NCBI RefSeq assembly: GCF_033126985.1
Contig: NZ_AP024714.1
Span: 1,472,990-1,504,989, forward strand
Origin: Methylomarinovum caldicuralii
GTDB lineage: Bacteria > Pseudomonadota > Gammaproteobacteria > Methylococcales > Methylothermaceae
Direction: 5' to 3'
Length of the DNA stretch: 32,000 nt
Shown here: piece by piece, positions 1,192 to 25,272 of the stretch
Numbering within the stretch: position 1 is the stretch's first letter
How the letters are laid out: each line of letters starts with the position of its first letter
Program-made: the position numbers and the translations under genes
Notes under the pieces: generated by a model
The model's input: the letters and a program-made list of their open reading frames with translations, nothing else
What the model was told of the DNA's origin: nothing
The model's database searches: none

Positions 1192-2786
1192 CGGCGATAG
1201 ATCCGAGCCAGCAAATCGTCCTCTCCGGCGGCTTCCGGGGTGGCGGAGGCTTGGCGCAATAGCGCGAGCTGCGTTTGTCCCTGTTGCCGCAGTGCCTCCA
1301 GCTCCGCTTCCAGATCCTGCAATTGGGATACGACCTCGGCCTCGATTTGCTCGAATCCCCGGTAAATGCCGGCACGAATGCCGCTTTCGGCCACCTTCTC
1401 CAGGGAAGGTTCGAGCAGGCGGTGGAGTAGAAAGGGAATCAGACAGGCCAGGCCAATGAGCAACAGGCTGTGGACGGCGAAATTGAGTCCCAGATATTCG
1501 CCTTCCCCGGTAAAGCCGCGGTAGTACCTTGCGACCACCTGCCAGGCGACCCAGCCTCCGGCGGCCAATGGCAGGAGGTAACGCAGCGCGGCGGTGAGCC
1601 ACAGCAGTCCCCGGCGCAGGCTGTGGCCGGGACGGGCCAGGGCGGCACGGACCGTGCGCTGGACCTGGTCGATCAGGATGCGGTCGAGACGTTTCCTGAC
1701 AGGCTCCAGACGCTGTTTCAGGGACGCGGCGGGCAGACCCCGTTCTCCGGCTTCCAGCACCAGCCGGTCCAGCGCGTCCTGCAGGTGCTTCTGACTCCAC
1801 AGATCCCAAAGCAGCGTCTCGCCGGAATTTCCCTGCCCGGATTTGAGCCGTTTCTGGCCCTTGCCGGCGATTTCCCGGGCCAGGGCCTTGGTGGGCCATT
1901 CCAGGGAAGGCGCCAGCGCGTCACAGGTCTGACGCCAAAGCCGTTGCCATTGTTTCACCAAGGGTGCGACGCTTTCGGGATCGAGTTTCCGCACCAGCCG
2001 CTCAATGCGGTCGGCCAGTTCCTGCATCCTTTGGCTGCGGTTGCGCTGTTGCAGGTGCTCGGCGCCGCCGTTTCTGGCCAGCCGGGTGAGGATTTCCTCC
2101 AGTTTGCCGAAGTCGTCCGGGCGGCGCCGGCTGAGGTCTTCACGGCTGTCGCAACGCAGCACCACAGGCGCCTTGAAGCCTGCCTGCCGCAACATCCGGG
2201 TGAAATCCTCGATCTGGGCCTCGTGTCCCTGGTCCCAGTGGTTCATGACGAACAGCCAGCCGTGTCGGTGACCGAAGCGTTGCAGCATCTGCCAGCCGGT
2301 ATCGTCCTTGTAGCGTTCCGGGCTGACCACGTAGATCAGGACGTCCACGTGGGGCAGGCACTGGAGCACCAGTTCACGGTTGCTTTCCTCGACGCTGTCG
2401 ATGTCGGGCATGTCGATCCAGACCACGTCGCGGCGGTTGGGATTCGCGTGGCGGGCCAGGCGCAGGTGCGCCAGGGGCAGCTGGTGTTCGAGGGCTTCAG
2501 TGGGCAGGGACCGGTGCAGATAGACCGTGACCTCCCGCGATGTCGGCCGCTCGATGCCGGTGCGGGCGACCGCTTCCCCCGCCAGGCGGTTGAGCAGGGT
2601 GCTTTTGCCCACGCCCGTGCCGCCGAAGAAGGCGACGATCAGCGGGGGATGCTCCACCTCGAACAAGGGGCCGCCGTCATCGCGGGCGGCGGAAAGATAC
2701 CGCTCCGCTTCTTCAGGGGTGATGAAGCCTGCGGCGGCAAGATGCTGGAACCACTGGGAGAGACGCTCAAAAGAGACGGAGTCCAT
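1188..2786 (-). CDS. Membrane-anchored P-loop GTPase of unknown function, paralogue of the upstream gene (dynamin-like architecture)
   Basis: 532 aa. G1 GGTGVGKST (nt 2598-2624), G3-like DMPD in WIDMPDIDS (nt 2403-2414), G4-like NHWD. Long helical region. Two hydrophobic helices near the C-terminus ([25 protein letters not shown] and [19 protein letters not shown]), then a coiled-coil-like tail. ATG 2786 is preceded by AGGAA and overlaps the upstream gene by 20 nt. I cannot assign a characterised family from memory. Confidence 0.6.
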
Positions 2787-4494
2787 AACGGCGTTCCTGC
2801 AGCTGTTGATCGACGGCGGTCAGGGTCTCGGCATCGAAGCCGAAGCGGTAGGCAGGGTCGATGGCCCCGGGCAGTTGGCGCAGGCGCTGGCCGAGCCGCG
2901 CTGCAAGCATGTTTTGGACCGCCTCCAGTTGTTGTTGTTTGAGGCGGGCGGCGACCCGCTCCATGTATTTTCCCAGGGCGGTTTCCGACAGCCACGAGGT
3001 CAGCGACAGGACCGCCGGGGCCAGGAAAAAATCGTGCGGTCCGATGCCGCCGGTCTGGAGCAGCAGGGCCAGTCCGGCAGCATCGGCGCTGAGCCGGGTG
3101 GCGCGCAATGCATTGAGGGTGACCGGCATTTCCTTGAGTTTTTCGTAGAGTTCCCGGGCGGCCGCTTCCACCTGGGGCTGAAATTCCCGGTAATAACGGC
3201 CGGCATCCTGTTGGAAGGCATCGAGCGTATCCGCCATGGTTTCCTGATAGTGCCGGGACAGGGACTGCCACCACGGCTGGGCCAGTTCGGAGGGCGGGGG
3301 TTCGGCCAACACCTGTTGCAACCGGCGCAGGGCGTGCTCGACGCTGTGGATCAGCACCCGCAGTTCCTCAGGGATGGCCTGGTCGTGTTTGCCCTTTCCC
3401 AGCAACTTGCGCAGCGGCCAGGTCAAGGTCCGCCGCATCCACAGCATCGGCTTGCCGATGCCGGGAAGTTCCAGCAGGATCAGCAGTTCCGCCAGCGCCC
3501 GCTGGAAGGTTTCGTAGGCGATCGGATGGTCGAGGAAGTCGTGGCGGTAGATTTCGATGGCCTGGACCAGCGCTGCCTCGACCTGCCTGCGCCAGGCTTT
3601 ATCTGCGGCGATTTCCGCCTCCAGCGGCTGCCGCCAGGCGGGCCAGTAGCGGCGGGCCAGTTCGAGGATCCGCCTGTCGCGCTGGCGGCGCTGGCGTTGG
3701 GCGAGCGGCAGGCGCTCGAGCAAAGCGGCCCGCACCTGGGCCCCGGCCTGGCGGCGTCCTTCCTCATCCTGCCAGTAGGGCAGTGGGATCACCGGTGGCG
3801 GTGGGTCTGCGCGGTGGCCGCGCCATTTCTCGTTCCAGGATCGCAGCAGGGTGTCGCGCCCCTTCGGAGTGACCTTGTTGAGGCAGACCAGGACCGGCTG
3901 CCCGAGGGGTTCGAGCAGGGTGAGCATGTCCCACACCGCCCGGTCGGCGTACTTGTCCTTGCTCACCACCACGAGCAGGAGATCGGCCAGTGCGGCGGTG
4001 CGCAGAACCCCATGCAGATAATGGCGGGCCCGCAGGGAATCGAAGTCCGGCGTGTCCCACAGGGTCAGGGCGGGAAGTTCCGGGTGGCCTGAGACCGGTT
4101 CGACGGCAAAGTGCGTGTAGCGGTCCGCAGGCAATTGTTCCCGCGGCAGGCGCCGGTAACCTTCGAAGTAGGCATCCAGCCAGTCGGCAGGTTCCGCCCG
4201 GTGGGCGAATCCCTGGGGGTGCACGGTGTAGCCGGCCAGGGGGCTGACGCCGGCCGCCTCGGTGTCGAGGATCAGGTTGACGATGCTGCTCTTGCCCGCC
4301 TGGGTCGGGCCAACGACGGCGACCTGCAGGGTGTGGTCGGGCGGCAGTTCGGTCTTGGCCAGGGCGGCCCGGGTCAGCTCCAGGGACGGTTCCAGCTCTG
4401 TCAGGTGCCTTGCCAGCGGGGATTCGGCAGGCAGGTGCGCCTGCAGGGCGCGGCTTTGCTGCCGGTACCGGTCGAGAAAGGCTTTCAGTTCCAA
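2767..4494 (-). CDS. P-loop GTPase of unknown function, paralogue of the downstream gene (dynamin-like architecture, no clear TM helix)
   Basis: 575 aa. G1 GPTQAGKSS (nt 4288-4311), G3-like DTPD in LWDTPDFDS (nt 4045-4056), G4-like NKVT. Shares with the next gene the block W-x-D-x-P-D-x-DS ... VVS-x(3)-Y-x-D-x(2)-W-x-ML. Long helical C-terminal two thirds with one hydrophobic or amphipathic stretch (GLALLLQTGGIGPHDFFLAPAVLSLTSWL). The only in-frame start before the P-loop is TTG at 4494, 2 nt after the upstream stop, with no obvious SD, so the start is uncertain. Confidence 0.55.
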   Translation of the reverse strand: MELKAFLDRYRQQSRALQAHLPAESPLARHLTELEPSLELTRAALAKTELPPDHTLQVAVVGPTQAGKSSIVNLILDTEAAGVSPLAGYTVHPQGFAHRAEPADWLDAYFEGYRRLPREQLPADRYTHFAVEPVSGHPELPALTLWDTPDFDSLRARHYLHGVLRTAALADLLLVVVSKDKYADRAVWDMLTLLEPLGQPVLVCLNKVTPKGRDTLLRSWNEKWRGHRADPPPPVIPLPYWQDEEGRRQAGAQVRAALLERLPLAQRQRRQRDRRILELARRYWPAWRQPLEAEIAADKAWRRQVEAALVQAIEIYRHDFLDHPIAYETFQRALAELLILLELPGIGKPMLWMRRTLTWPLRKLLGKGKHDQAIPEELRVLIHSVEHALRRLQQVLAEPPPSELAQPWWQSLSRHYQETMADTLDAFQQDAGRYYREFQPQVEAAARELYEKLKEMPVTLNALRATRLSADAAGLALLLQTGGIGPHDFFLAPAVLSLTSWLSETALGKYMERVAARLKQQQLEAVQNMLAARLGQRLRQLPGAIDPAYRFGFDAETLTAVDQQLQERRYGLRLF

Positions 4495-4496
4495 AA

Positions 4497-5183
4497 TTAC
4501 GGTTTCGGTAGTTCTTTGGGTTCTTCCAGGGTGCGGATGAAGCGGTCCGCCTGCTGGATGGACTGTTCCATGACCTGGATCATCGCCGCGATGTCGACGC
4601 TGACGTGGTTCAGTTCATGCTGCAGGGCGGCGATGGCCCGGGCGTTGAGGTTGTGCTTGAGAAACAGAACCTGGTCTCGGAAGGCGTTGAGGACCGGGTC
4701 GATGCGGCTTTCCGCCTTGCGCATGGCGCCGATGAGCTGTTTGTAGTGGCGCTGGGTCAGCCTCAGCTTCTGACGGCTCTTGCTGCGCAGGCTGCGGTTG
4801 GTGTAAAGCGCCAGCTCGTCCTCCCATTCGGAGAACAGGGATTCGGCCAGGGATTCAATGGTGTCGATGTGGTTTCTGACTTCCTCGGCCTTCTGTTCGC
4901 TGTGGTCGAATTCCCGCTTGAGGGCGCGGTAGTAGCTGGCGAGGCTGCCGCCGTCGTAGGCGATCAGGGCGCTGAAGCGTTCCAGGGTGGTCTGGAGCTG
5001 TTCCTTGGTTTCCTCCAGGCCAGTGCGGGCATCCTCCACCCGGGCGACGAGGAAATCGCGCTTGTGGGAGCCGGTGGTCGATTCCGCCATCCGGTAATAG
5101 GCCTGGCGGATCCGCCCCAGCACGAACCGCCCCAGGCGTTGGGACAGGGTGCGGCGGCGCTCCGCACGGACAGGGAGTTTCAT
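4497..5183 (-). CDS. DUF2959-family all-helical protein
   Basis: 228 aa. The blocks AYYRMAES..HKRDFLVARVEDAR, LFSEWEDELALYTNRSLRSKSRQKL, MRKAESRIDPVLNAFRDQVLFLKHNLNA match my recollection of the gammaproteobacterial DUF2959 family. The N-terminus is basic, with no hydrophobic signal or lipobox. The stop TAA (4497-4499) is 2 nt from the next gene start. Confidence 0.6.
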   Translation of the reverse strand: MKLPVRAERRRTLSQRLGRFVLGRIRQAYYRMAESTTGSHKRDFLVARVEDARTGLEETKEQLQTTLERFSALIAYDGGSLASYYRALKREFDHSEQKAEEVRNHIDTIESLAESLFSEWEDELALYTNRSLRSKSRQKLRLTQRHYKQLIGAMRKAESRIDPVLNAFRDQVLFLKHNLNARAIAALQHELNHVSVDIAAMIQVMEQSIQQADRFIRTLEEPKELPKP

Positions 5184-5245
5184 GGGCTGATGGACAAGCG
5201 ATTACAATGACGTTTCAACATTCTAACATTGGTCCCAGCCGCGCC

Positions 5246-6967: not shown

Positions 6968-6992
6968 AAAAGGGAAGGCCGAAGCCTCCCCC
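6967..6992 (-). terminator. Rho-independent terminator for degP (minus strand)
   Basis: Read on the minus strand: GGGAGGC-TTCG-GCCTTCCC followed by TTTTT. This is a 7-bp stem with one bulge and a UUCG loop, about 25-45 nt downstream of the degP stop. It abuts the polX stop codon. Confidence 0.5.
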
Positions 6993-7013
6993 GAATCTTC
7001 CCCGGAAGGGAAA

Positions 7014-8417: not shown

Positions 8418-8485
8418 GGAGTGTTCCTTGTCAGGTTGTTGATGGGAAACGACCTGCCATTGCGGCAGGGGGATCGGCGCTATTC

Positions 8486-8494
8486 TGCTACAAT
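8486..8494 (+). promoter_or_regulatory. Candidate extended -10 promoter element TGCTACAAT upstream of yadG
   Basis: TGnTAcAAT lies 30 nt upstream of the yadG ATG. The same 11-mer TCTGCTACAAT recurs upstream of cvpA. No good -35 is seen, which is compatible with an extended -10 promoter. Confidence 0.35.
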
Positions 8495-8523: not shown

Positions 8524-9450
8524 ATGAAAGCCCTGAAACTGCAAAACCTTCGCAAGGTCTACGACAACGGCTTCGAGGCCCTCAAGGGCATCGATCTGGA
8601 GGTGGAGGCCGGTGACTTTTTCGCGCTCCTCGGCCCCAACGGCGCCGGCAAGTCCACCACCATCGGCATCGTCACCTCGCTGGTGACCAAGACAGCGGGA
8701 AAGGTGGAAATCTGCGGCCACGATCTCGACCGCGAACCGGATGCGGCCAAGCGCTGTCTCGGGCTGGTGCCCCAGGAAATTAACTTCAACCAGTTCGAGA
8801 AGGTCGGCCGGATCGTCCTCAATCAGGCCGGTTATTACGGCGTGCCGCGGCGGCAGGCGCGCCGTCGCATGGAGGAAGTGCTCAAGAAGCTCGATCTCTG
8901 GGACCGGCGCGACGAGGTGTCGCGGCGGCTGTCCGGCGGGATGAAACGGCGGCTGATGATCGCCCGGGCTTTGGTGCACTGTCCCCGGGTGCTGATCCTC
9001 GACGAGCCGACCGCCGGGGTGGACATCGAAATCCGCTATTCCATGTGGGAATTTCTGCGCCGACTCAACCAGGAAGGCACCACCATCATTCTGACCACCC
9101 ATTATCTCGAGGAGGCCGAGCGGCTGTGCCGCCACGTGGCCATCATTGATCACGGCCGCATCGTCGAGTCCACGTCCATGAAGCGGCTGCTGGCCCAGCT
9201 GGAATATCACCGCTATCTGCTGGAACTGCGTAATCCGCCGCAGGCCATCCCGGAGATTCCGGGTTACCGGATCGAGGCGATGGAGGCCAATGTCTGGGCG
9301 GTGGAGGTGCCGCGTTCCCAGGGGCTGAACCCGCTGTTCGCCGCCCTGAACCGGTTGGGTCTGGAGGTGATCGACATCCGTCCCACCAGCAACCGCCTGG
9401 AACAGCTGTTTTTCCAGCGCGTCCGCCAAAGGGCAGGGGAGGCGGCCTGA
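8524..9450 (+). CDS. yadG: ABC transporter ATP-binding protein, YadG type (ABC-2 exporter)
   Basis: Walker A GPNGAGKST, signature LSGGMKRR, Walker B LILDEPT. Collinear similarity to E. coli YadG along the whole length as recalled (LLGPNGAGKSTTIGI, NQAGYYGV, TTIILTTHYLEEAE). Confidence 0.9.
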   Translation: MKALKLQNLRKVYDNGFEALKGIDLEVEAGDFFALLGPNGAGKSTTIGIVTSLVTKTAGKVEICGHDLDREPDAAKRCLGLVPQEINFNQFEKVGRIVLNQAGYYGVPRRQARRRMEEVLKKLDLWDRRDEVSRRLSGGMKRRLMIARALVHCPRVLILDEPTAGVDIEIRYSMWEFLRRLNQEGTTIILTTHYLEEAERLCRHVAIIDHGRIVESTSMKRLLAQLEYHRYLLELRNPPQAIPEIPGYRIEAMEANVWAVEVPRSQGLNPLFAALNRLGLEVIDIRPTSNRLEQLFFQRVRQRAGEAA

Positions 9451-10217: not shown

Positions 10218-10921
10218 CCGACCAGCCGGGCCAGGGCGTCGCGGTCGAGAATCCGGACCCGTTTGCCGTCGAGCTCGATCCAGCCCTCCCGTTCGAACTG
10301 CTTGAGGGTGCGGCTGACCGTGGCCAGGGCCAGATCCAGGTGGTTTCCCAGTTCCTGGCGGGTCAGGCCGATGGAGAACTCCTCCCCGGAAAAACCGCGG
10401 AAGGCATAACGGCGGGACAGGTCGAGTAGAAAGGCGGCCAGGCGCTCCTCGGCCGGTTTCTTGATGAAGACGGTCTGGTCGCGCTGGCTGGCGAGGGCGT
10501 CGCTGGCGTGGCGCAACATTTCCCCGAGCATTGTCGGGATGCGGAAACAGATGCGGGAGATTTCCTTGGCCGGCAGCTCGCAATAGCTGACCGTGTCCAG
10601 CGCCTGGGCGGAACAGCGGTAGCGGTTGTCCGCCAGGGCATCGAAGCCGACCACTTCCCCGGGAAGCAGCACCTGGAGGATGTGTTCCTCGCCTTGGTCG
10701 TCCTGATAGATCAGCTTGGCGGTGCCGGATTTGATGGCGATCAGGCCGTGGAAAGGATCGGCGGCGCGGAACAGGAATTCTCCCTTCCGCAATGCCTTGC
10801 GGCGCTCGACCACATCTTCAAGCTGACTGACTTCCTCGCGGGTCAGCCCCCGGGGGAAGCATACGGTTCTGAAACCGCAATTGTGACAAGTGACTTGCAG
10901 TTTTTTGTGCAAAGTCGTCAT
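10214..10921 (-). CDS. fnr: FNR-type [4Fe-4S] oxygen-sensing Crp/Fnr family transcription regulator
   Basis: N-terminal C-x2-C-x5-C (C12, C15, C21) plus C114, with the same 93-residue spacing as E. coli FNR C29 to C122. cNMP-like beta-roll. C-terminal HTH LTRQELGNHLDLALATVSRTL. Ala replaces the conserved Glu of the E--SR recognition motif. Confidence 0.85.
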   Translation of the reverse strand: MTTLHKKLQVTCHNCGFRTVCFPRGLTREEVSQLEDVVERRKALRKGEFLFRAADPFHGLIAIKSGTAKLIYQDDQGEEHILQVLLPGEVVGFDALADNRYRCSAQALDTVSYCELPAKEISRICFRIPTMLGEMLRHASDALASQRDQTVFIKKPAEERLAAFLLDLSRRYAFRGFSGEEFSIGLTRQELGNHLDLALATVSRTLKQFEREGWIELDGKRVRILDRDALARLVG

Positions 10922-11051
10922 GTATCCGAGCCAGGAACGTTTCCGGGTAATGATACACGACCTGAGCGCTCAGGAAATGCTTGAAAATCGTTCGTTTCTG
11001 TCACAATATCAATCTTATACCGTTATTTTTACTATCAACTCTAAACACAAA

Positions 11052-11894
11052 ATGAACTTAAACCAAGCAGAAGAGAACCTCATTCACAGGTTTCAAGCGC
11101 TGCGGGAAGCGATCCAGGATTTCGTCGTCCAGCTGAATCAGGAAAGCCGCAGGGCCTGGGTCTTCGATCTAGCGCATCGCGAATACCACGATGCGGAGGC
11201 CAGAAGCCAATTGATCCAGATCCTGACGCGGCTGGAATATCCGGACAACCGCGATGGCCGGGAAACCGATCCCTGTCCCGGCATCATCGGGGCAGGGCCC
11301 AGGACGCTGGCGCTGGCCGGCGCCCTCAATCAGGCCCGGGATGCCTTCAAGCAGGCGGTGCTCGCGATCAACAGTCATGACAGGGAACGGTCCCGGCGCC
11401 TGATGGCCGCCCAGGGCTTTGCCCGCCTGCATTTCAAACAGCTGTACCGTCATCAGCCGATTCTGCTGCGCAAACCCTGTTCCATCCGCTTTACCTGGGG
11501 AGCGACACGCTCGATCAAGCGTATCAGCCGCCAGGAGGCCTACCGCAGGCTGACGGCGCTGGCCGGCGACGATCCATCGCCCGGTTACCTGAGACAGCTG
11601 GAGCTTCTGGCCCAGCATCCCAAGGATGAACCCATCGCCATCGTGCAGGACCTAAAACCGCATATCAAGGCCAACGTCTGCTGGATTCAGGGAAGCGGCC
11701 AGGATCGTCAGGTCATCCGCAAAATGATCAGCGCGCCGTTGGCGATTCTGATCCCGCTGGACCCGGGTGAGGACTTGCCGCAGCATAGCGCCGCCTATCC
11801 GGAGGCGCGCAAACCGAGAAAGCCGCGCGCCGATACCAGGATCGAGCGGGAGCTGTTTTTACCGTCGATCCGGGGTCACCGTTACTGCCGGTAA
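11052..11894 (+). CDS. tus: Tus-family DNA replication terminus site-binding protein homologue
   Basis: 280 aa from MNLNQ. Hand alignment to E. coli Tus (recalled) is collinear end to end. [22 protein letters not shown] aligns with RLNTTFRQMEQELAIFAAHLEQ. PGIIG aligns with [29 protein letters not shown] aligns with [53 protein letters not shown] aligns with [36 protein letters not shown] aligns with LIIPRLHLYV. The track start at 10890 would overlap fnr and adds non-homologous residues. No SD is seen before 11052. Confidence 0.7.
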   Translation: [280 protein letters not shown]

Positions 11895-11901
11895 TACTCT
11901 A

Positions 11902-11929
11902 ACTTTACATAATATACATTATGCGAACA
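11902..11929 (-). other. dif: dif, the XerC/XerD chromosome dimer resolution site
   Basis: The minus strand reads TGTTCGCATAA-TGTATA-TTATGTAAAGT against E. coli dif GGTGCGCATAA-TGTATA-TTATGTTAAAT, 24/28 identical. The central hexamer is 6/6 and each arm is 9/11. It is intergenic and is the only such site in the window. KOPS polarity converges on it. Confidence 0.85.
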
Positions 11930-12016: not shown

Positions 12017-12721
12017 ATGACCCAGTCACTGCAGGCGCTGAAAACCCACAGGGACACCGAGGACCGCCAGGCTTTCAACGAAGTCCTGCGGCAGTTTCTG
12101 CCACAGCTCAGGCCCTATGTCGCCGCCCGCCTCCGGTACGCCGAACACGCGGGCCTGATTCCCCCGCGAATGTACTTTCCCAGTGACATCGTGGACGAGA
12201 TCTATCTGGAAGTGTTCGAGCATTTCAGCGATGCCGATCTCGATCCCAAAAAACTCAAGATCAGGCTGTTCAAGCTGGCCGACGCCAAACTGGAAAAAAT
12301 CCTCAAGGAAGAAGCCCGGTGGCAGGAACGCAAGGTTCCCATCGAGGACATCGTCCGGGAGGAACTGAAATCGCTGGAGGAAATCTTCTACCCGGAGGAA
12401 ATGCTCGACGACATCGAGTACCGCCAGGACGAATACCGCCCCAAACTTCTGTTGCTGGAAGAAGGCTTCGAGGGCGACCTGCTGGACTTCCTCGAGCTGG
12501 ACCGCAGCCTGCGCCAAGAGGCCAGGAACCGCCAATTGCTCGCCCGGGCTTACGAGAGTCTGCCGCCGTTGAGCCGGATCATCCTGGAGCTGAAAGTCAA
12601 CGGCAACCTGACGGTGGAAGAGATCGCCGATGTCCGGGAGATGGATGTGGAGGAAGTCGAGGCGGGTCTGGAGGCGGTGAAAAGGCGTTTCCGCCAGGCT
12701 TTGGGGCAGGAAGCCGCTTAG
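12017..12721 (+). CDS. Sigma-70 family (ECF-like) RNA polymerase sigma factor with a long acidic sigma2-sigma4 linker
   Basis: AAGGAG about 10 nt upstream of the ATG. Region-2-like segment AFNEVLRQFLPQLRPYVAARL...DIVDEIYLEVFEHF. Region-4-like HTH LPPLSRIILELKVNGNLTVEEIADVREMDVEEVEAGLEAVKRRFRQAL. An acidic linker of about 65 aa lies between them. No anti-sigma candidate is adjacent. Confidence 0.65.
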   Translation: MTQSLQALKTHRDTEDRQAFNEVLRQFLPQLRPYVAARLRYAEHAGLIPPRMYFPSDIVDEIYLEVFEHFSDADLDPKKLKIRLFKLADAKLEKILKEEARWQERKVPIEDIVREELKSLEEIFYPEEMLDDIEYRQDEYRPKLLLLEEGFEGDLLDFLELDRSLRQEARNRQLLARAYESLPPLSRIILELKVNGNLTVEEIADVREMDVEEVEAGLEAVKRRFRQALGQEAA

Positions 12722-13800
12722 CGGGTCGCCGGCAGGAAAGGCCGGGGGTCGAGGATCGGCGCCCGCTCCAGCACCAGGTCCGCCAGCAGGCGGGCCGCAG
12801 CCGGGGCCATCACCACGCCGTTGCGGAAATGACCGCAGTCGTAATAGAGGTTGGCGACCTGGGGATGCGGCCCGATGTAGGGGATTCCCTCGGGCGCGGC
12901 AGGCCGCAGCCCGCCCCAGTGCAGCACCACCGGGAACTCCGCCAGGGCCGGAAGCATGCTCAGGGCCGCCTGGTACAGACGCCGGTAGGCCGCCGCGGTC
13001 GGCCGCTTGTCGAAACCCGCTTCCTCGACGGTACTGCCCACCAGGATATGACCGTCGTAGCGTGGAATCAGGTAATGGTCCCCCCGTTGCACCATGAGGG
13101 TCAACAGTTCCGGCGGCGCCCGGAACAGGAGCATCTGCCCTTTGACCGGCCTGATCTGCGGCTGCCAGCCTTCCGCGTGCAGCTGTGCCGACCAGGCCCC
13201 GGCGGTGACGATGAAAACATCGGCACGACAATCGCCCGCGGGGGTGCGCGCGGCGACGATGCGCTTTCCCGCCTGCCGCCATCCTGAGACCGGGGTGTGC
13301 TCCCGAATCTCCACACCCTTGGCCTGCAGCTCTTTCCTTAAGGCCTTCACCAGACGGGGGTTGCGGATCTGGGCGATGCCTTCGATCCACAAATGGCTGC
13401 CCCCGGGAGGCGGGGCCAATTGCGGGAACCGCGTCTGGATCTCGGTAGCGGTCGGGCTTTCCCAGTCGATCCCGTGGCGGCGGCACCAGGCGACCGCCTC
13501 ACGAAGATCTGCCAGATCGAGCCACAGCAGGCCGCAGCGACGGTATTGGGGATCAATCCATGTCTCCCGCCTCAAAGTCTCGGCAAGTTCCGGATAGTGC
13601 GCCTGACTCCAGAAGGACAACTGCTGGATCGGCACAGGCTGACGCCAGGGATACAGCGGCGTGAGAATGCCGCCTCCGGCCCAGGAGGCCTCCTGCCCTA
13701 CCCGGCCGCGTTCCAGAATCGTGACCTGCCAACCGGCGGCCTGCAGTTCCCGGGCGCACAACAGGCCGCTGATACCGGCACCGACGATCAGGCAATGCAT
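12718..13800 (-). CDS. thiO: FAD-dependent glycine oxidase ThiO
   Basis: N-terminal dinucleotide fold CLIVGAGISGLLCARELQAAGWQVTILE. Length and C-terminal motifs (YDCGHFRNG) are typical of ThiO and DAO-family oxidases. The ATG at 13800 lies 2 nt after the gnd stop; the track start at 13806 is TTG. Confidence 0.75.
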   Translation of the reverse strand: MHCLIVGAGISGLLCARELQAAGWQVTILERGRVGQEASWAGGGILTPLYPWRQPVPIQQLSFWSQAHYPELAETLRRETWIDPQYRRCGLLWLDLADLREAVAWCRRHGIDWESPTATEIQTRFPQLAPPPGGSHLWIEGIAQIRNPRLVKALRKELQAKGVEIREHTPVSGWRQAGKRIVAARTPAGDCRADVFIVTAGAWSAQLHAEGWQPQIRPVKGQMLLFRAPPELLTLMVQRGDHYLIPRYDGHILVGSTVEEAGFDKRPTAAAYRRLYQAALSMLPALAEFPVVLHWGGLRPAAPEGIPYIGPHPQVANLYYDCGHFRNGVVMAPAAARLLADLVLERAPILDPRPFLPATR

Positions 13801-13802
13801 GG

Positions 13803-15302
13803 TCAATCGCTGTAGATTTCCTGGCGGCTGCCGTGCCAGTCGAAGTGGAAGAATGCCCCCCGGGGGCGATCGACCCGTTCGTAGGTGTGGGCCCCGAAAT
13901 AATCCCGCTGGGCCTGGATCAGGTTCGCCGGCAGCCGCTCGCTGCGGTAGCTGTCGTAATAGGCCAGGGCCGAGGACAGGGCCGGCACGGGCAGACCACT
14001 CAGAACGGCGTCGGCGACGCTGCGGCGCCAGGCGGCATGATCCTCGCTGAGCACCCGGCGGAAATCCCCGGCGAGCAGCAGATTGGCCAGATCGGGGCTG
14101 GTGTCAAAGGCAGCGGCGATCCGATTGAGAAAGCGGGCCCGGATGATGCAGCCGCCCCGCCAGATACGGGCGATGGTGGCGAAATCGAAATGCCAGCCGT
14201 ATTTTTCCTGGGCCGCCTGCATCAGCTGGAAGCCCTGGGCATAGGCGCAGATTTTGGCGCTGTAGAGACAGCGTTCCAGCTGCCGGGTCAGGGCGTCGGG
14301 ATCGGTTGCCTGCAACGGCTGGGGTCCGTTCAGCACCCGGCTGGCCTGATGGCGCTGCTCCACCAGCGCGGCAAGGAAACGGGCGAACACGGCTTCTGCC
14401 AGCGCATTCGCCGGCACGCCCAGATCGAGGGCACTGGTGGCGGCCCACTTGCCGGTGCCTTTCTGACCGGCGGCATCGAGGATCTTGTCGATCAGATACC
14501 CTTTTCCGGCAGGATCGGGCTGACGCAGAATCTCGGCGGTGATGGCGATGAGGTAACTGGCCAAGTCCCCCTGGTTCCAGCGCGCGAAGATGTCGGCCAG
14601 CGTGGGGTTGTCGAAACCGCCGAGGTGTTTCAGCAGCCAATAGCTTTCGGCGATCAGCTGCATGTCGATGTATTCGATGCCGTTGTGGACCATCTTCACG
14701 TAGTGGCCGGCGCCGTTCTCCCCCACCCAGGCGGCGCAGGGCTCCCCTTCCCGCACCGGCTTTCCGGGCGCTGCCCCTTCGATGGGATCGCCGGTTTTCG
14801 GGTCGACCTTGGCGGCGATGTCGAGCCAGACGGGCTCGATCCGCTTCCAGGCCTCCAGGCTGCCGCCGGCCATCAGCGAGGGACCGAAGCGGGCGCCGGT
14901 TTCCCCGCCGGAAATGCCGGAGCCGACGAAGAGGATCTCCTGCCGGCGCAGTTCCCGCTCGCGGCGGATGGTGTCGAGCCAGTGGGCGTTGCCACAGTCG
15001 ATCAGGATGTCGCCGGGATCGAGGAAGGGCAGCAGGTTATCGATGGTCAGGTCGGTGGGATCGCCGGCCTTGACCAGCAGGACGATCCGGCGGGGGCGCT
15101 CGATGGCGTTGACGAAGGCCTCCAGCTCGTGAAATCCCTGCAGCCACGTCCACGAAGGTTCCCGCTGGCGGCATTCGGCGAGAAACCGGTCCGTGACCTC
15201 GGGATGGCGGTTGAACACCGCCGTCACATAGCCGTGGTCGGCCAGGTTCAGGCTCAGATTGCGCCCCATGACGCCCAGTCCCAGCACGCCGATGTCTGCC
15301 AT
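13803..15302 (-). CDS. gnd: NADP-dependent 6-phosphogluconate dehydrogenase (decarboxylating)
   Basis: Rossmann motif IGVLGLGVMGRNL and signature GAGHYVKMVHNGIEY. C-terminal RDYFGAHTYERVD. ATG 15302 is preceded by GGGAG; the track start at 15308 is TTG. Carries a short insertion (VDPKTGDPIEGAAPGKPVREGEP) relative to E. coli Gnd as recalled. Confidence 0.9.
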   Translation of the reverse strand: MADIGVLGLGVMGRNLSLNLADHGYVTAVFNRHPEVTDRFLAECRQREPSWTWLQGFHELEAFVNAIERPRRIVLLVKAGDPTDLTIDNLLPFLDPGDILIDCGNAHWLDTIRRERELRRQEILFVGSGISGGETGARFGPSLMAGGSLEAWKRIEPVWLDIAAKVDPKTGDPIEGAAPGKPVREGEPCAAWVGENGAGHYVKMVHNGIEYIDMQLIAESYWLLKHLGGFDNPTLADIFARWNQGDLASYLIAITAEILRQPDPAGKGYLIDKILDAAGQKGTGKWAATSALDLGVPANALAEAVFARFLAALVEQRHQASRVLNGPQPLQATDPDALTRQLERCLYSAKICAYAQGFQLMQAAQEKYGWHFDFATIARIWRGGCIIRARFLNRIAAAFDTSPDLANLLLAGDFRRVLSEDHAAWRRSVADAVLSGLPVPALSSALAYYDSYRSERLPANLIQAQRDYFGAHTYERVDRPRGAFFHFDWHGSRQEIYSD

Positions 15303-15371
15303 CTTCAACTCCCGGCTTGAATATTAGGTATCGATTATAAATGTATTGACTATGGACAACACGAACGAAGT

Positions 15372-15673: not shown

Positions 15674-15700
15674 AAAGCCCCGCGATCGCGGGGCTTTTTT
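15674..15700. terminator. Bidirectional rho-independent terminator (small ORF and ychF)
   Basis: AAA-GCCCCGCGA/TCGCGGGGC-TTTTTT. The 18-nt palindrome at 15677-15694 is perfect, with an A-run and a T-run on either side. It overlaps the ychF stop codon (15699-15701). Confidence 0.8.
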
Positions 15701-16790
15701 ACACGTTGAAGCGGAAGTGGACCACGTCGCCTTCCTGCATGACGTAATCCTTGCCCTCCAGGCGCCATTTGCCGGCCTCCTTGGCCCCCTGCTCTCCCCC
15801 GTGGCGGACGAAATCCCCGTAGGCGATGACCTCGGCGCGAATGAAACCCTTCTCGAAATCGCTGTGGATGACGCCGGCCGCCTGGGGCGCGGTAGCCCCC
15901 TGCTTGACGGTCCAGGCGCGGACTTCCTTTTCTCCGGCGGTGAAGAAGGTCTGCAGCCCCAGCAGCCGGTAAACCGCCCGCACCACCCGGTCGAGACCGG
16001 CTTCCGCCAATCCCAGCTCCTCCAGGAAGGCTTCCCGGTCCGCCTCGTCCAGCTGGGAGATTTCCGCCTCGATCGCCGCGCACACCGGCACCACCTGGGC
16101 ACCTTCGGCGGCGGCGTGGGCCCGCACCTGTTCCAGCAGCGGATTGGCATCGAAGCCGGATTCGTTCACGTTGGCGACATACAGCACCGGCTTGGCGGTC
16201 AAGAGATGCAGGCCACGCAGCAGGGCGCGCTCGTCTTCGCCCAGATCCAGGCTGCGCACCGGTTTGCCGGCGTCCAGATGGGCGGCCACACTTTCCAGCA
16301 GCGCCTTTTCCGCCCGCGCGGCCTTGTCGCCGGATTTGGCCGCCCGCGTGACCCGCTGTAATGCCCTGTCCACCGTCTCCATGTCTGCGAGCACCAGTTC
16401 GGTGTTGATGATCTCGATGTCGCGCACCGGATCGACCGAGCCGGCCACGTGGGTGACGTCGCCGTCCTCGAAGCAGCGGACCACGTGGGCGATAGCGTCG
16501 GTTTCACGGATGTGGCCGAGGAACTGGTTACCCAGCCCCTCCCCCTTGGAAGCCCCGGCCACCAGCCCCGCGATGTCGACGAACTCCACCGTGGTCGGCA
16601 GGGTACGTTGGGGTTGGACGATCTCAGCCAGGGTCTTGAGCCTGGGATCGGGGACCGGCACCACCCCCACATTGGGATCGATGGTGCAGAAGGGATAGTT
16701 TTCCGCGGCGATTTCCGCCCGCGTCAGCGCGTTGAACAGGGTGGACTTGCCGACGTTGGGAAGCCCGACGATACCGCAATGTAATGCCAT
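15699..16790 (-). CDS. ychF: Redox-regulated ribosome-binding ATPase YchF
   Basis: N-terminal [18 protein letters not shown]. Coiled-coil insert. C-terminal TGS-like domain ([32 protein letters not shown]). Confidence 0.95.
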
Positions 16791-16823: not shown

Positions 16824-18278
16824 TTAGCGCGAGGATTCTTCGTCGAAACGCAGGATGTCGCCGCCGCCCAGATAGGCGCCGGACTGGACCTCGATGACCT
16901 CCAGAGGGATCTTGCCGGGGTTCTCCAGACGGTGGCGGACCCCGACCGGGATGTAAGTGGATTGATTCTCGGTCAGCAGAAAAGTTTCCTCCTCCTTCCC
17001 TGCCCCGCGGGTGATGCGGGCGGTGCCCTTGACGACCACCCAGTGTTCGGCGCGGTGATGGTGCAGCTGGGTCACCACGTGGGCGCCGGGGCGTACCGTC
17101 AGGCGGTTGACCTGGTAGCGGTCCCCCTTGCCGATGGTTTCGATCATTCCCCAGGGGCGGTGGATCTTCAGGTGGTGAAGGTACTCGTAGCGGCCCTGGG
17201 ATTTGAGATATTCGGCCACCTTGCGCACCTGCTGGGCGCTCTCCTTGTGGGCTACGAGGATGGCGTCGGCGGTTTCGGCGACGATGAGATCCTTCACCCC
17301 CAGGGCGGCGACGAAGCGGTCGTTGGCATGGACCAGGGAGTCCTCGACCTCGTGCAGGAACACGTCGCCGTGGGTGATGTTGCCGTCGGTATCGGCGTCG
17401 GCCACCTCCCACATAGCCGGCCACGATCCCAGATCGGACCAGCCGGCATCCAGCGGCAGGACGGCACCCTGCCAGTCGCTGCCGGAAAGGCGCTCCATCA
17501 CCGCATAGTCGATGGAATCGGCGGGACAGGCGGCGAAGGCGTCGCGGTCGAGGCGGAAAAAATCGGCGTCCTCCCGCCCGTTTTCGACCGCCTGGCGGCA
17601 GGCGGCCAGGATGTCGGGCCGAAACCGCCCGATGGCTTCGAGCCAGACGGATGCACGCATCACGAAAATGCCGCTGTTCCAGAGATAGTCGCCGCTGGCC
17701 AGATAGCTTTCCGCGGTTTTGCGATCGGGTTTCTCCACGAAGCTGTCGAGCAGGCGGGCATGACCCTGGAGCGGCTTCCCCACGCGGATGTAGCCGAAGC
17801 CGGTTTCCGGCCGGGTGGGGACGATGCCGAAAGTGACCAGATATCCCTGTTCGGCCAGCTGGACCGCTTCCGCCAGGGTGGTACAGAAGGCCCGGCGGTT
17901 GCGGATGACGTGGTCGGAAGGCATCACCGCCAGTACCGGGTCGCCGCCTTCCCGGCGGCTTAACAAGGCGGCGACGGTAAGCGCGGGCGCCGTGTTGCGG
18001 CCCGCCGGCTCCAGGATGATCTCGCCGGCGGCAAAACCAAGCTCGCGCAGCTGCTCTGCGACCAGAAAGCGGTGGGCCTCGTTGCAGATCACCGCCGGCG
18101 GCGGTAGCGTGATGTCGGGATCGGCCTCGGTCAATGCCTGAAACCGCAGCACGGTTTCCTGCAGCAGGCTGTGATCGCCGGTCAACGCGAGGAACTGTTT
18201 GGGATAGGCTTCACGGGACAGGGGCCACAGGCGGGTTCCGGAACCGCCGGAAAGGATTACCGCTTTGCATTGACGCAT
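16824..18278 (-). CDS. manC: Bifunctional mannose-1-phosphate guanylyltransferase / mannose-6-phosphate isomerase
   Basis: N-terminal nucleotidyltransferase motif VILSGGSGTRLWPLSR. C-terminal cupin with HHRAEHWVVVKG. 484 aa, typical of the ManC/CpsB/AlgA/XanB family. Confidence 0.9.
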   Translation of the reverse strand: MRQCKAVILSGGSGTRLWPLSREAYPKQFLALTGDHSLLQETVLRFQALTEADPDITLPPPAVICNEAHRFLVAEQLRELGFAAGEIILEPAGRNTAPALTVAALLSRREGGDPVLAVMPSDHVIRNRRAFCTTLAEAVQLAEQGYLVTFGIVPTRPETGFGYIRVGKPLQGHARLLDSFVEKPDRKTAESYLASGDYLWNSGIFVMRASVWLEAIGRFRPDILAACRQAVENGREDADFFRLDRDAFAACPADSIDYAVMERLSGSDWQGAVLPLDAGWSDLGSWPAMWEVADADTDGNITHGDVFLHEVEDSLVHANDRFVAALGVKDLIVAETADAILVAHKESAQQVRKVAEYLKSQGRYEYLHHLKIHRPWGMIETIGKGDRYQVNRLTVRPGAHVVTQLHHHRAEHWVVVKGTARITRGAGKEEETFLLTENQSTYIPVGVRHRLENPGKIPLEVIEVQSGAYLGGGDILRFDEESSR

Positions 18279-19087: not shown

Positions 19088-19107
19088 TCAGAAACCGCGG
19101 CCGGGAT

Positions 19108-21797: not shown

Positions 21798-21813
21798 GTT
21801 TCGGAAAATCCTG

Positions 21814-22350
21814 TCAAAGTGGAAGGGAAGGAAGACGGTAACGCTGGAGATAGGGCTTGGGGTCCAGACGCCCGAGGGTATTGGCCCAGCGCTCGGCATG
21901 GGGCAAAAGACGCGACGTGCGCCACCAGCTTTCCCGGTCCAGCTCGAAATTCTGGGCCAGCAGGACAACGGCGGCGATCAGCAAAACCCCGCGTCCGGCG
22001 CCGAAAACGAATCCTCCCAGGCGGTTCAGGACACTCAGCGGCGAATGTTCCACCAGGGTGGCGAGCAGGAACCCGGTCAGTTTGCCGACGAGCAGCGTGG
22101 CGACGAACAAAATTACGAAGGCGGTGGCGATGCGTAAGGTAGGATGCGGCAGGACGGACTCGAGCTGGTAGGCCATGGCAGGATGGAAGTGGAGTGCAAC
22201 CCAAAGCGCGGCGATCCAGCTGAGCAGCGCGAAACTTTCCTGCACCAGACCGCGGACGAACCCCAACAAGGCGGAAACCACCACCACGGCCAGGATGGCA
22301 TAATCGATCCAGAGCAATGCGGAAATTCTGCCACGATTGTAAAGAGGCAT
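21814..22350 (-). CDS. cvpA: Colicin V production membrane protein CvpA
   Basis: The [21 protein letters not shown] start block and four hydrophobic segments are typical of CvpA upstream of purF. Only the last 178 codons of the 715-codon track ORF are CvpA. The start is ambiguous: ATG 22350 lies 1 nt after a TGCTACAAT -10-like element, and TTG 22317 would give MLWIDY, as in E. coli MVWIDY. Confidence 0.8.
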
Positions 22351-22351
22351 G

Positions 22352-22360
22352 ATTGTAGCA
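22352..22360 (-). promoter_or_regulatory. Candidate extended -10 element TGCTACAAT upstream of or overlapping the cvpA start
   Basis: The minus strand reads AATCTGCTACAATC-ATG. It shares the 11-mer TCTGCTACAAT with the yadG upstream region. Confidence 0.3.
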
Positions 22361-22392
22361 GATTCCCCTCTCAGCTGATACGCTGATATACC

Positions 22393-23400
22393 ATGGAAAC
22401 CCTGTCCACGGCACTCCCGGCGCGCTTCGTCGAGCGGCTGCAGGCCATCATCCCGCCCGCCCGGCTGGCGGAAGTGCTCGCCAGTTTCGGTCGGCCCAAG
22501 ATCCCTGTCCTGCGGGTGAACACCTTGCGATCCTCCGTCCTGGAAACCTTCACCGAATTGCAGACTCAGGGGTTTCCGCTCGATCCCCTTCCCCAACTGG
22601 AATACGCCGCCAGCCTGCCGCCGGAATGGAAACGCCCGCTGACGGAGACGTCGGCGTTTGCGGAGGGACGGATCTACCTTCAGAACCCCTCCAGCATGCT
22701 CGCGGTGGAGATGCTGGTGCCCCAGCCCGGCGAGGAGGTGCTCGATCTGTGCGCTGCCCCCGGCGGCAAGACTTCCCTGCTGGCGATGAAAATGGGAAAC
22801 CGGGGCCGGATCGCGGCAGTGGAGCCGGTCAAGGACCGTTTCTACCGGCTTAAAGCCAATCTGGCCCGCCTGGGCGTGACCGTTGCCCGCGGTTACCGCA
22901 TGGACGGCCGCGCCGTCGGCCGCAAGGTGCCCGAACGTTTTGACCGCGTGCTGGTGGACGCCCCCTGCTCGTCCGAGTCCCGCTTTCGCAGCGAAGATCC
23001 CCAAAGCCACGCCCACTGGCATGAGCGCAAGATCGCCGAATGTTCCCGCAAGCAGAAACGGTTGTTGCTGTCGGCCTTTCAGGCATTGAAGCCGGGCGGC
23101 CGCCTGCTCTACTGCACCTGTGCCTTCGCCCCCGAAGAGAACGAAATGGTGGTGGACGCCCTGTTGCGGCGGCATCCGGAGGCGGAGATCGTCCCCTTGC
23201 AACTTCCCGGGGTGGCGCAGCAGCCGGGGCTGACCCGGTGGCAGGGAAAAACCCTGGCTGCATCCCTTGAGGGCGCCCTCAGGATTCTTCCGGACCAGGT
23301 TTACGACGGCTTTTTTCTGTGTCTGGTGACGAAGGGCCGTGGCGTTGGTGCCAAAGCCGGTCCAGTTCGGAAAGGCGCTGCAGTTTGGCCGCGATCTTGA
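22393..23400 (+). CDS. RsmB/RsmF/NOP-family SAM-dependent RNA (cytosine-C5) methyltransferase
   Basis: SAM-binding motif [10 protein letters not shown]. Catalytic motifs DAPCS and TCA(F)xPEENE. The conserved part ends near GFFLCLVTK, and the frame then runs 21 more codons to TGA 23398-23400, overlapping the rarA 3' end. Confidence 0.8.
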
Positions 23401-24658
23401 TTTCCAGGCCGCGCTCGACCGGCTGGTAATAGCGACGCGGTTCCATCTCCTCGGGAAAATAGTTTTCCCCGGCGGCATACCCTTCCGGTTCGTCATGGGC
23501 ATAGCGGTAGCGGCGGCCGTAGCCCAGCTCCCGCATGAGCCGGGTCGGGGCGTTGCGCAGATGCACCGGCACCTCCAGGCTGCCGGTGGCGGCGGCATCC
23601 CGTTGCGCCGCCTGAAAGGCGCGATAGACGGCATTGCTTTTCGGTGCGCAGGCCAGATAGACCGCCGCCTGGGCCAGGGCCAGCTCCCCTTCCGGCGACC
23701 CCAGCCGCTCCTGGGCGTCCCAGGCATCGAGCGCCAGGCGCAATGCCCGCGGGTCGGCGTTGCCGATGTCCTCGCTGGCGATACGCACCAGGCGGCGGGC
23801 GATGTAGAGCGGATCGCAACCACCATCCAGCATGCGGCAGAGCCAGTACAGGGCTGCGTCGGGATCGCTGCCGCGGATGGTCTTGTGCAGGGCGGAGATC
23901 TGATCGTAGAAGGCGTCCCCCTGGCGGTCGAAACGGCGCGGGCTGCCGCCGGCCAGAACATCCCGGGCGACCGCTTCGGAGATGTGGACGACGCCGCCTG
24001 CCTCCTCGCCCAGATCGACGAGCACTTCCAGCAGATTCAACAGGCGGCGGGCATCGCCGTCGGCGGCCTGGATCAGCCAGGGGCGCACCGCGGCCGGCAG
24101 CCTGATCTCCCGGCCGCCGAAACCGCACGGATCGGTCAGGGCGCGGTCGATGACCTGTTCCAGGTCGGTTTCCCCGAGCGGTTTGAGTACATAGACCCTG
24201 GCCCGGGACAACAGGGCGTTGTTGAGGGCGAAGGAGGGATTTTCCGTGGTCGCCCCGATGAAGCAGATCAGCCCGGTTTCGATATGGGGAAGAAAGGCGT
24301 CCTGCTGGGCTTTGTTGAAACGGTGCACCTCGTCGACGAAGAGGATGGTTCGGCGCCCCTGTTCCCGGATCGCCTCTGCCTGTTGGATGGCTTGGCGGAT
24401 GTTTTGGATATTGGATAAAACAGCAGATAACGGTATAAATTCGGCGTCCGCCGTCGCCGCCACCATCCGCGCCAGCGTCGTCTTGCCGGTCCCCGGCGGC
24501 CCCCAGAGAATCATCGAGTGCAGATGTCCGGCCCGAACCGCCTCATAGAGAGGCTTGCCCGGCGCCAGCAGGTGGTGCTGGCCGAAGAACTCCTCCAGGC
24601 GCTGGGGCCGCAGGCGGTCGGCCAGCGGCCGGGAATCGGCGCTGTTTTCCAACTTCAC
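23279..24658 (-). CDS. rarA: Replication-associated recombination protein A (AAA+ ATPase RarA/MgsA)
   Basis: Walker [10 protein letters not shown], Walker [11 protein letters not shown], and MgsA C-terminal domain ([25 protein letters not shown]). The GTG start at 24658 overlaps the lolA stop (GTGA). Confidence 0.95.
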
Positions 24659-25272
24659 GTGCCTTCGAAGACATCCACGCCGGGCGGCGGAGAGAAGCGG
24701 AACAGCTCAGGATCGAGGCGGGGATTGATCTCCAGCCGATGGAAGCGGATCCGGGTCAGCTGCCCGAAATTGTCCGCCAGTTCCATCGCCTGCAAAACGT
24801 CCCGTTGCAGTTCAACCCGCAAACGGCGGAAGACGTCGTTCTTGGATTTGGGACGCAGCTCCACCCAGGCCCGCCCGCCTTCGCTTCCCTGCCCTGCCAC
24901 CCGGAAACGCTCCTGCAGGCGGACCTGACCGCTGAGCAGCAGCGCCGGCGCCGATCCCAGCGCCTCGTCGAGCGGGCGCACGGTCACCTGTTCCAGATCA
25001 GGATCGTAGAACCAGACCTTGCTGCCGTCGGCGATCACCCATTGCCGGTACGGCTTGCGGTATTCCCAGCGGAACCTGCCCGGCCGCGCCAGATAGAAGC
25101 GCCCTTCGCTGCGCTGGCTGACGTTTCCGTGTTCGTCGATGACTTCCTGCTCGAAATCGGCAGCCAGGGTCTTGACCCGGGAAAGGAAGCCATCGAGCGC
25201 GTCCACGGGCGCGGCGGTGGCTGCGGCTGCCCACCACAACAGGAAAATCACTGGAAAGAAAGACAATTGCAT
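24655..25272 (-). CDS. lolA: Outer-membrane lipoprotein carrier protein LolA
   Basis: Signal peptide [22 protein letters not shown]. LolA-like length (205 aa) and conserved ftsK-lolA-rarA synteny. ATG 25272 lies 4 nt after the ftsK stop. The track start at 25494 lies inside ftsK. Confidence 0.85.

Follow-up and report, generated by a model that had tools for sequence, protein, structure and literature searches.

The closest described systems are those of E. coli, V. cholerae and P. aeruginosa, in which the FtsK gamma domain reads KOPS/FRS words (FtsK-orienting polar sequences, 5'-GGGNAGGG-3') that converge on XerCD/dif. In E. coli, the KOPS skew reaches 0.91 over the genome and 1.0 in the dif region; chromosome 1 of V. 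cholerae has 0.80 and 0.92, respectively, and the dif-region skew of B. subtilis is 0.90 (PMC3384302). Counts of 153/34 and 271/57 in P. aeruginosa PAO1-UW correspond to a skew of about 0.82 (PMC6199493). The gamma domain of P. aeruginosa has been crystallised on GGGCAGGG, and the roles of the KOPS-reading residues have been described (PMC2533119, PMC2680272). The octamer GGGCAGGG also acts as an AIMS in most Proteobacteria, AIMS (architecture-imparting sequences, Hendrickson and Lawrence) having by definition a skew that increases toward the terminus (PMC3384302).

In Methylomarinovum caldicuralii, both chromosome arms show a polarity of GGGNAGGG that runs from an origin region at about 754 kb to dif, a site unique in the genome. 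Convergence of this polarity on dif is textbook and represents ordinary gammaproteobacterial architecture; it was expected because this gammaproteobacterium possesses an FtsK gamma domain of the Pseudomonas/E. coli type. On the basis of word statistics and homology, GGGNAGGG is probably the KOPS of M. caldicuralii.

The octamer, dif and FtsK in the window

We scanned both strands of the window, the 32,000-nucleotide stretch of DNA analysed here, by exact search for GGGNAGGG and found 10 matches, three on the plus strand and seven on the minus strand (Table 1). An earlier note on this DNA had listed ten copies; the search agreed with it on the position, strand and variant base of each one and added none. 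Its count of nine out of ten copies oriented toward dif was also reproduced, and no plus-sense copy was found right of dif in the window on either reading. The number of copies is at chance level (10 vs. a shuffle expectation of 11.35 ± 3.6), indicating no enrichment in the window. The probability of at least nine of ten copies pointing toward dif is P = 0.011 under a 50:50 null, but only P = 0.086 when the 65% bias of same-composition words in the genome is taken as the null. The window alone proves little, and the proportion of nine out of ten, overstated in the earlier note, is not significant after allowing for strand composition.

Table 1. Features of the window (positions in the 32,000-nucleotide stretch).
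Feature	Position	Strand	Remarks
GGGCAGGG	1831..1838	-	Left of dif, points away; only non-permissive copy in the window; sense strand of GTPase gene 1188-2786 (-)
GGGCAGGG	2502..2509	+	Toward dif; antisense to host GTPase gene 1188-2786 (-)
GGGCAGGG	9431..9438	+	Toward dif; within ABC ATPase gene 8524-9450 (+)
GGGCAGGG	11290..11297	+	Toward dif, ~0.6 kb away; within Tus-like gene
Tus-like gene	10890..11894	+	7 bp from dif
dif, 28 bp	11902..11929	-	XerC and XerD arms, central hexamer; sole such site in the genome; GGGNAGGG polarity converges there
GGGTAGGG	13696..13703	-	Toward dif; within FAD oxidoreductase gene 12718-13806 (-)
GGGAAGGG	14745..14752	-	Toward dif; within gnd 13803-15308 (-)
GGGGAGGG	16537..16544	-	Toward dif; within ychF 15699-16790 (-)
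GGGCAGGG	16998..17005	-	Toward dif; within manC-like gene 16824-18278 (-)
GGGAAGGG	22586..22593	-	Toward dif; antisense to rsmF-like gene 22393-23400 (+)
GGGCAGGG	24887..24894	-	Toward dif; within lolA 24655-25494 (-)
ftsK, 828 aa	25277..27763	-	4TM anchor, alpha domain, FtsK/SpoIIIE motor, gamma domain
FtsK gamma winged-helix coding region	25280..25489	-	Residues ~759-828

On its minus strand, dif matches the E. coli dif sequence at 24 of 28 positions, and it is the only site within eight mismatches of that sequence in the 2.69 Mb genome. A megablast comparison of the dif region with plasmids gave no match. Both recombinases are encoded, with XerD scoring 388 bits and XerC 347 bits, each above its curated cut-off. 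Next to dif resides the Tus-like gene; E. coli-type Ter cores (GTTGTAAC and extensions) were found at 37 scattered positions, with neither a common flank nor an arrangement around dif.

The ftsK gene encodes a full-length protein and is located in its usual neighbourhood, trxB-ftsK-lolA-rarA, at a distance of 13.4–15.8 kb from dif, in agreement with the 13–16 kb reported in the earlier note. The gamma domain of the encoded protein is recognised as PF09397 at 93.6 bits, and its comparison with the P. aeruginosa gamma domain (PDB 2VE8/2VE9) gives E = 8e-25 with ~45 of 70 aligned residues identical (~64%, our own count). In the recognition helix, N794, R798, E801, and E804 correspond to E. coli N1296, R1300, E1303, and E1306; the KOPS-reading residues are kept. 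Relatives of this FtsK are 50–56% identical overall, and the best local segments stem from Methylococcaceae or Competibacterales MAGs. By analogy with E. coli, V. cholerae and P. aeruginosa, the gamma domains of the FtsK hexamer would bind a GGGNAGGG copy at septum closure and thereby fix the loading orientation. The motor would then pump DNA 5'-to-3' along the G-rich strand until it meets XerCD at dif, where gamma would activate XerD for the resolution of chromosome dimers.

Chromosome-wide polarity and its possible causes

Over the 2.69 Mb chromosome, 497 copies of GGGNAGGG lie on the leading strand and 166 on the lagging strand, i.e., 75%, with leading/lagging counts of 154/39 on the short arm and 343/127 on the long arm. 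The skew is 0.84 within ±200 kb of dif, 0.81 within ±400 kb, and 0.82 (40 vs. 9) in the ±94.3 kb around dif that constitute the central 7% of the genome. A two-segment likelihood places the polarity switch at -22 kb from dif with a 2-lnL interval from -23.9 to +2.8 kb. This interval contains dif. At the scale of the whole chromosome, the polarity supports the reading of the earlier note.

The polarity of GGGNAGGG goes beyond what strand composition and sub-word frequencies predict. In rankings that took in 14,000–34,000 octamer families, GGGNAGGG is always found among the top 3–8: it ranks third by skew among 34,372 one-N octamer families, third among 34,393 families after per-base composition correction (z = 7.7), and in dif-centred regions eighth by P and third by fraction. 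Strand-specific Markov models of order 3–6 predict a skew of only 0.59–0.69, and the observed/expected ratio, depending on the Markov order, is 1.13–1.43 in the leading orientation and 0.53–0.84 in the reverse orientation. The skew of GGGNTGGG is only 61%. The word is nevertheless not unique, as GGGNGGGG is equally skewed (0.763 over the whole genome, 0.82 within 400 kb of dif) and, like GGGNAGGG, shows its skew in all three gene classes considered below. Because of this equal skew, the word read by FtsK cannot be identified from statistics alone. The earlier statement that the E. coli-type KOPS word is used here is supported but overstated, since it draws on statistics and homology.

One alternative is that the polarity arises as a by-product of a general enrichment of G-runs on the leading strand, where a mutational or repair asymmetry would act more than multiplicatively on GGG-containing words without FtsK reading GGGNAGGG specifically. 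In that case, FtsK might read a broader or different word, e.g., GGGNRGGG, or none. Such a by-product would be in line with the GC skew of 0.03–0.06, which switches within 14 kb of dif, with the many G-rich octamers reaching a skew of 0.70–0.84, and with GGGNGGGG equalling GGGNAGGG in all tests on the M. caldicuralii genome. It would also fit the course of the polarity along the arms, on which we saw no increase of GGGNAGGG density or skew approaching dif. However, none of the other G6A1N1 arrangements, 42 in all, is as skewed as GGGNAGGG, which lies about 10 points over its pooled composition class (0.754 vs. ~0.655, P = 4e-8). The base at position 5 also matters, A giving a skew of 0.754 and T only 0.611 (Fisher P = 4e-9); leading strands are enriched in T, not A, and the contrast thus runs against the AT skew. 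The residual skew left by the strand-specific Markov models and the conserved recognition residues of the gamma domain also speak against G-run enrichment. We also compared the ±200 kb around their own dif in two relatives, one genome of the same genus and one of the same order. Both switch the polarity of GGGNAGGG at dif, with skews of 0.78 (P = 5e-8) and 0.87 (P = 2e-10), respectively. In the same-order genome, where the GC skew is only 0.03, the value of 0.87 for GGGNAGGG is clearly higher than those of GGGNGGGG (0.75), GGGNCGGG (0.64), and GGGNTGGG (0.58). Taking both sides into account, we regard the G-run explanation as unlikely.

The polarity could also be produced by gene orientation and codon usage, if the word were common on sense strands and genes preferred the leading strand. 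Inside the window, such an explanation is hard to set apart, as only the copies at 2502 and 22586 are antisense to their host genes, the other eight being on the sense strand, and the minus strand carries the majority of the genes right of dif. The earlier note had argued that gene orientation is not the cause, which is weak for the window but stands genome-wide. Our gene calls, 1,920 genes covering 79% of the genome, come from crude filtering by ORF length and GC3 and are not a real annotation. The leading strand holds roughly 55–60% of the coding length, as read from 100-kb bins, indicating a weak gene-strand bias. The skew of GGGNAGGG is highest in lagging-strand genes (0.86), followed by spacers (0.78) and leading-strand genes (0.65), which is the reverse of a coding artefact; the codon-driven word GGNGGTGG, in contrast, falls to 0.53 in lagging-strand genes. 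We rejected the gene-orientation artefact, which is highly improbable, on this skew by gene class: the polarity of GGGNAGGG is independent of gene orientation. Reading GGGNAGGG as the KOPS of M. caldicuralii remains the best account of these data and is probably correct.

The origin and the unequal arms

Two very unequal arms of 0.73 and 1.96 Mb (27:73) emerge alike from the polar words, the GC skew, the skew at third codon positions, and dif. A second polarity switch of GGGNAGGG is located near gidA at ~754 kb, not at dnaA, and dif lies 616 kb (23% of the chromosome) off the antipode of the gidA-linked origin. An origin at dnaA, the start of the record, was rejected, as the skew does not switch there, an AT-rich stretch is lacking, and no DnaA box lies within 3 kb. 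A cluster of DnaA boxes at 644.5 kb coincides with the maximum-likelihood switch of GGGNAGGG at 641–643 kb. The gidA site is favoured over this cluster because the GC, GC3, and intergenic skews at 640–760 kb still look like those of the long arm. For annotation, GGGNAGGG and the GC skew thus place the origin beside gidA rather than at dnaA.

The chromosome of the same-genus relative appears balanced. Synteny probes (SMC, RecB, and Lon) against the two relatives revealed several rearrangements but did not trace the event that unbalanced the arms. It is unlikely that the 27:73 arms are a stable natural state, with a Tus-like fork trap or termination far from dif, instead of the outcome of a recent rearrangement spanning the origin or of an error in the assembly. 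If they were stable, the Tus-like protein could be part of a fork trap, in which the short-arm fork would be held during well over half of the time that replication takes. Alternatively, replication would end far from dif, and the uncoupling of KOPS/dif-guided segregation from termination would be about twice that described for PAO1-UW. The unusually lopsided chromosome together with the Tus-like gene would be a good natural case for testing whether the skew switch is set by segregation polarity or by the meeting of forks. The polarity of GGGNAGGG serves mainly as an independent confirmation of the dif call and the arm structure and matters little for KOPS itself.

Comparison with described polar words

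The SRS of B. subtilis (GAGAAGGG) and the KOPS of L. lactis (GAAGAAG) are likewise polar and follow the same logic, being read by the gamma domains of FtsK/SpoIIIE translocases (PMC3384302). Unlike in these systems, the word in M. caldicuralii is a different one, and the gamma domain is of the gammaproteobacterial, not the Firmicute, type. The octamer resembles AIMS in being skewed and in marking the replichores by its polarity but differs from them in lacking a terminus-ward gradient.

Compared with the KOPS/FRS models, the differences include the equal polarity of GGGNGGGG and the word-marked arms of 27:73, which are near 50:50 in the model cases. The dif-region skew of 0.82 is below the values of at least 0.9 known from E. 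coli, V. cholerae, and B. subtilis, the genome-wide skew is likewise below the published KOPS values of E. coli and V. cholerae, and no increase of skew is seen close to dif. A dif-region skew of at least 0.9 characterises the model cases quantitatively and is no strict criterion. One leading-strand copy of GGGNAGGG occurs per 5.4 kb, in contrast to 12.6 kb in E. coli (PMC3384302), a higher density that is expected at 64.6% GC. On the other hand, the octamer family is identical to that of E. coli, V. cholerae, and P. aeruginosa, and M. caldicuralii shares with them the origin-to-dif polarity on both arms, the switch at a 28-bp dif, the presence of genes for both XerC and XerD, and the FtsK domain order of 4TM, alpha, motor, and gamma. 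With its skew of ~0.75–0.84, M. caldicuralii resembles P. aeruginosa PAO1-UW (~0.82).

Polarity of a probable FtsK-orienting word around dif

An exact search of both strands of the window recovered ten copies of GGGNAGGG, the E. coli-type KOPS octamer family with one N, with coordinates and strands identical to those listed by eye in the earlier note. The reported change of polarity at about 11.9 kb was reproduced, the plus strand carrying three of the four copies to the left and the minus strand all six to the right. The dif-type site for XerCD is identical at 24 of 28 positions to the E. coli dif sequence and is unique in the genome in a search allowing up to eight mismatches. The window by itself is thin evidence for KOPS polarity. 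The number of copies is at chance (10 observed vs. 11.35 ± 3.6 in shuffles), and nine of ten pointing toward dif gives P = 0.011 against a 50:50 null, rising to P = 0.086 when the null is the 65% bias seen in same-composition words.

The chromosome is a single contig of 2,694,844 bp with 64.6% GC, of which the window occupies bases 1,472,990–1,504,989, and its positive GC skew is confined to about 760 kb–1,499 kb. With 753.9 kb taken as the origin and 1,484.9 kb as the position of dif, GGGNAGGG has 154 leading and 39 lagging copies in the short arm (skew 0.80), 343 and 127 in the long arm (0.73), and 497 and 166 in the whole genome (0.75), with a leading-strand density of one per 5.4 kb. The skew about dif is 0.82 within ±94 kb, 0.84 within ±200 kb, and 0.81 within ±400 kb; no increase of density or skew was found on approaching dif. 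A two-segment likelihood scan placed the polarity switch at −22 to −21 kb from dif, with a 2-lnL interval of −23.9 to +2.8 kb that contains dif. The earlier note had set just this coincidence as the check on its interpretation.

Features of the window and of the chromosome (G000:C1)
Feature	Location	Strand	Description
dif-type site	window 11902-11929	minus	
Tus-family ORF	window 10890-11894	plus	PF05472 (Ter), 24.8 bits vs. cut-off 22
ftsK ORF	window 25277-27763	minus	828 aa; 4TM, alpha, motor and gamma domains
DUF2959 gene, then two paralogous GTPases	window 1188-5183	minus	closely spaced; both GTPases with weak dynamin-family matches
dnaA	chromosome 50-1426		transcribed toward origin, head-on to replication
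Second DnaA-box cluster	chromosome 644.5-644.9 kb		380-bp spacer, 52% GC
oriC-like intergenic region	chromosome ~753.7-754.2 kb		several DnaA boxes and AT-rich tract; directly upstream of gidA
Three ORFs of 275 aa	chromosome 700,206; 1,190,990; 2,016,655		near-identical weak DnaA-family matches (~33 bits)

The sole non-permissive copy of the KOPS word GGGCAGGG (window 1831) lies inside the distal of the two paralogous GTPases. The Tus-family ORF terminates 7 bp from dif, and E. coli-type Ter cores (GTTGTAAC with flanks) arranged around dif were not found.

Gene orientation and strand composition

The earlier note held that gene orientation alone does not explain the polarity. The window cannot establish this because the sense strand of the host gene carries eight of the ten copies, but the remark stands genome-wide. 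Genes were called crudely, from ORF length and a GC3 filter. By these calls the leading fraction of GGGNAGGG is 0.65 for genes on the leading strand, 0.86 for those on the lagging strand, and 0.78 for spacers; that of the codon-driven word GGNGGTGG drops to 0.53 within lagging-strand genes. The bias therefore tracks the direction of replication or segregation, not transcription, and a coding artefact is a most improbable source of the polarity. When all one-N octamer families were ranked blind by skew, GGGNAGGG came 3rd of 34,372, and 3rd of 34,393 (z = 7.7) with a fitted per-base correction; it ranked 3rd by fraction within ±400 kb of dif, and 8th by P whether the region centred on dif was ±94 kb or ±400 kb. 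It is more skewed than any other of the 42 words composed of six G, an A, and an N (0.754 vs. ~0.655 pooled for same-composition arrangements, P = 4e-8), and each of its four exact members is 1st to 3rd within its own composition class. With T in place of A at position 5 the skew is lower, 0.611 (Fisher P = 4e-9), even though leading strands favour T. Leading-strand Markov models of order 3 to 6 give an expected skew of 0.59–0.69, against which the forward word shows a modest excess (O/E 1.13–1.43) and the reverse word a deficit (O/E 0.53–0.84).

A non-specific strand asymmetry of G-runs, or a broader GGGNRGGG specificity, is an unlikely explanation that nevertheless carries some weight, as the polarity of GGGNGGGG equals that of GGGNAGGG here (0.763 overall and 0.82 within 400 kb of dif) and is likewise present in all three gene classes. 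The word selected in this genome may be GGGNRGGG. GGGNYGGG reaches only ~0.61, compared with 0.76–0.82 for GGGNGGGG genome-wide and in the ±400 kb about dif. The best argument for the A-containing word as the selected one in the lineage comes from a same-order genome (G016), in which GGGNAGGG (0.87) is well above GGGNGGGG (0.75), GGGNCGGG (0.64), and GGGNTGGG (0.58), at a GC skew of only 0.03. The A form alone stands out there among the words. In the 400 kb centred on its own dif, this genome has 35 plus- and 5 minus-strand copies to the left and 4 and 27 to the right (P = 2e-10), including a run of eight plus-strand copies up to dif followed by nine on the minus strand. The corresponding region of a same-genus genome (G008) has 34 and 14 to the left and 8 and 42 to the right (skew toward dif 0.78, P = 5e-8).

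Origin region and unequal arms

Unexpectedly, the second polarity switch does not fall at dnaA. This gene, some 754 kb away from the origin that the skews define, lacks a DnaA box within 3 kb and shows neither an AT-rich stretch nor a skew switch. The reversal of the GC, GC3, and intergenic skews is at about 755–770 kb. Past the oriC-like spacer follow gidA, parB, a run of co-oriented ORFs, and SMC; the family-model check covered gidA, parB, and SMC, and from gene order we presume the co-oriented ORFs to be atp and glmUS. The 644.5 kb spacer, flanked by a ppnN-like gene and a CBS-domain gene, contains six DnaA boxes when one mismatch is allowed (two are perfect matches), together with AT-rich tracts, and could be a second oriC-like or a datA/DARS-like locus. 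The GGGNAGGG likelihood switch (641–643 kb) coincides with this locus, but the switch of GC skew and of the other skews does not. The three 275-aa ORFs we take to be copies of a putative IstB-like IS21 helper ATPase; one, in the 640–760 kb zone near the origin, adjoins a type I restriction (HsdR) island with all its genes on the minus strand.

An origin at ~754 kb and dif at 1,485 kb result in arms of 731 kb and 1,964 kb (27:73), on which KOPS polarity, GC, GC3, and intergenic skews agree, with dif displaced by 616 kb, 22.9% of the chromosome length, from the point opposite the origin. The long arm exceeds the short arm by 169%, compared with 56% in P. aeruginosa PAO1-UW (PMC6199493). No weakening of GC3 skew was found in 1,485–2,101 kb, the reach of an unimpeded short-arm fork. 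In the same-genus genome, too, dnaA is far from gidA: one contig carries both, 578 kb apart and, we infer, on one arm; sampled skews and contig sizes imply arms of ~1.79 and ~1.70 Mb, which appear balanced. The imbalance is therefore either specific to this lineage or an assembly error. Three synteny probes made several rearrangements evident but did not single out the event behind the imbalance.

FtsK, XerCD, and known KOPS systems

The distance of 13–16 kb between ftsK and dif in the earlier note agrees with the measured 13.4–15.8 kb; trxB borders ftsK on one side and lolA-rarA on the other. The last 70 residues of FtsK match the P. aeruginosa gamma domain (PDB 2VE8/2VE9) with E = 8e-25, about 45 of 70 residues being identical when counted by hand, and the E. 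coli gamma domain (2J5P) with 4e-21. In FtsK of E. coli and V. cholerae, KOPS are no longer recognised when the residues corresponding to E. coli N1296, R1300, E1303, and E1306 are substituted (PMC2533119, PMC2680272). All four are conserved here as N794, R798, E801, and E804, with the recognition-helix spacing (N, +4 R, +7 E, +10 E) of E. coli. XerD and XerC are both encoded, with scores exceeding curated cut-offs. A polar word converging on a unique dif is accompanied by a conserved reader domain and the recombinases, and the remaining steps would follow by homology to the FtsK mechanism. Bound to GGGNAGGG, the gamma domains would fix how the hexamer is oriented; the motor would then translocate toward dif, where XerD would be activated by gamma. 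We consider it likely that GGGNAGGG serves in this way as the KOPS of this chromosome.

The skew of GGGNAGGG is lower than published for E. coli (0.91 genome-wide and 1.0 near dif) and for V. cholerae chromosome 1 (0.80 and 0.92) (PMC3384302) but near that of PAO1-UW, likewise a high-GC genome, with KOPS counts of 153/34 and 271/57 (PMC6199493). GGGCAGGG shows AIMS behaviour in most Proteobacteria (PMC3384302). The system described here is the gammaproteobacterial KOPS-FtsK-XerCD-dif system, and the observation, though correct, is an ordinary one.
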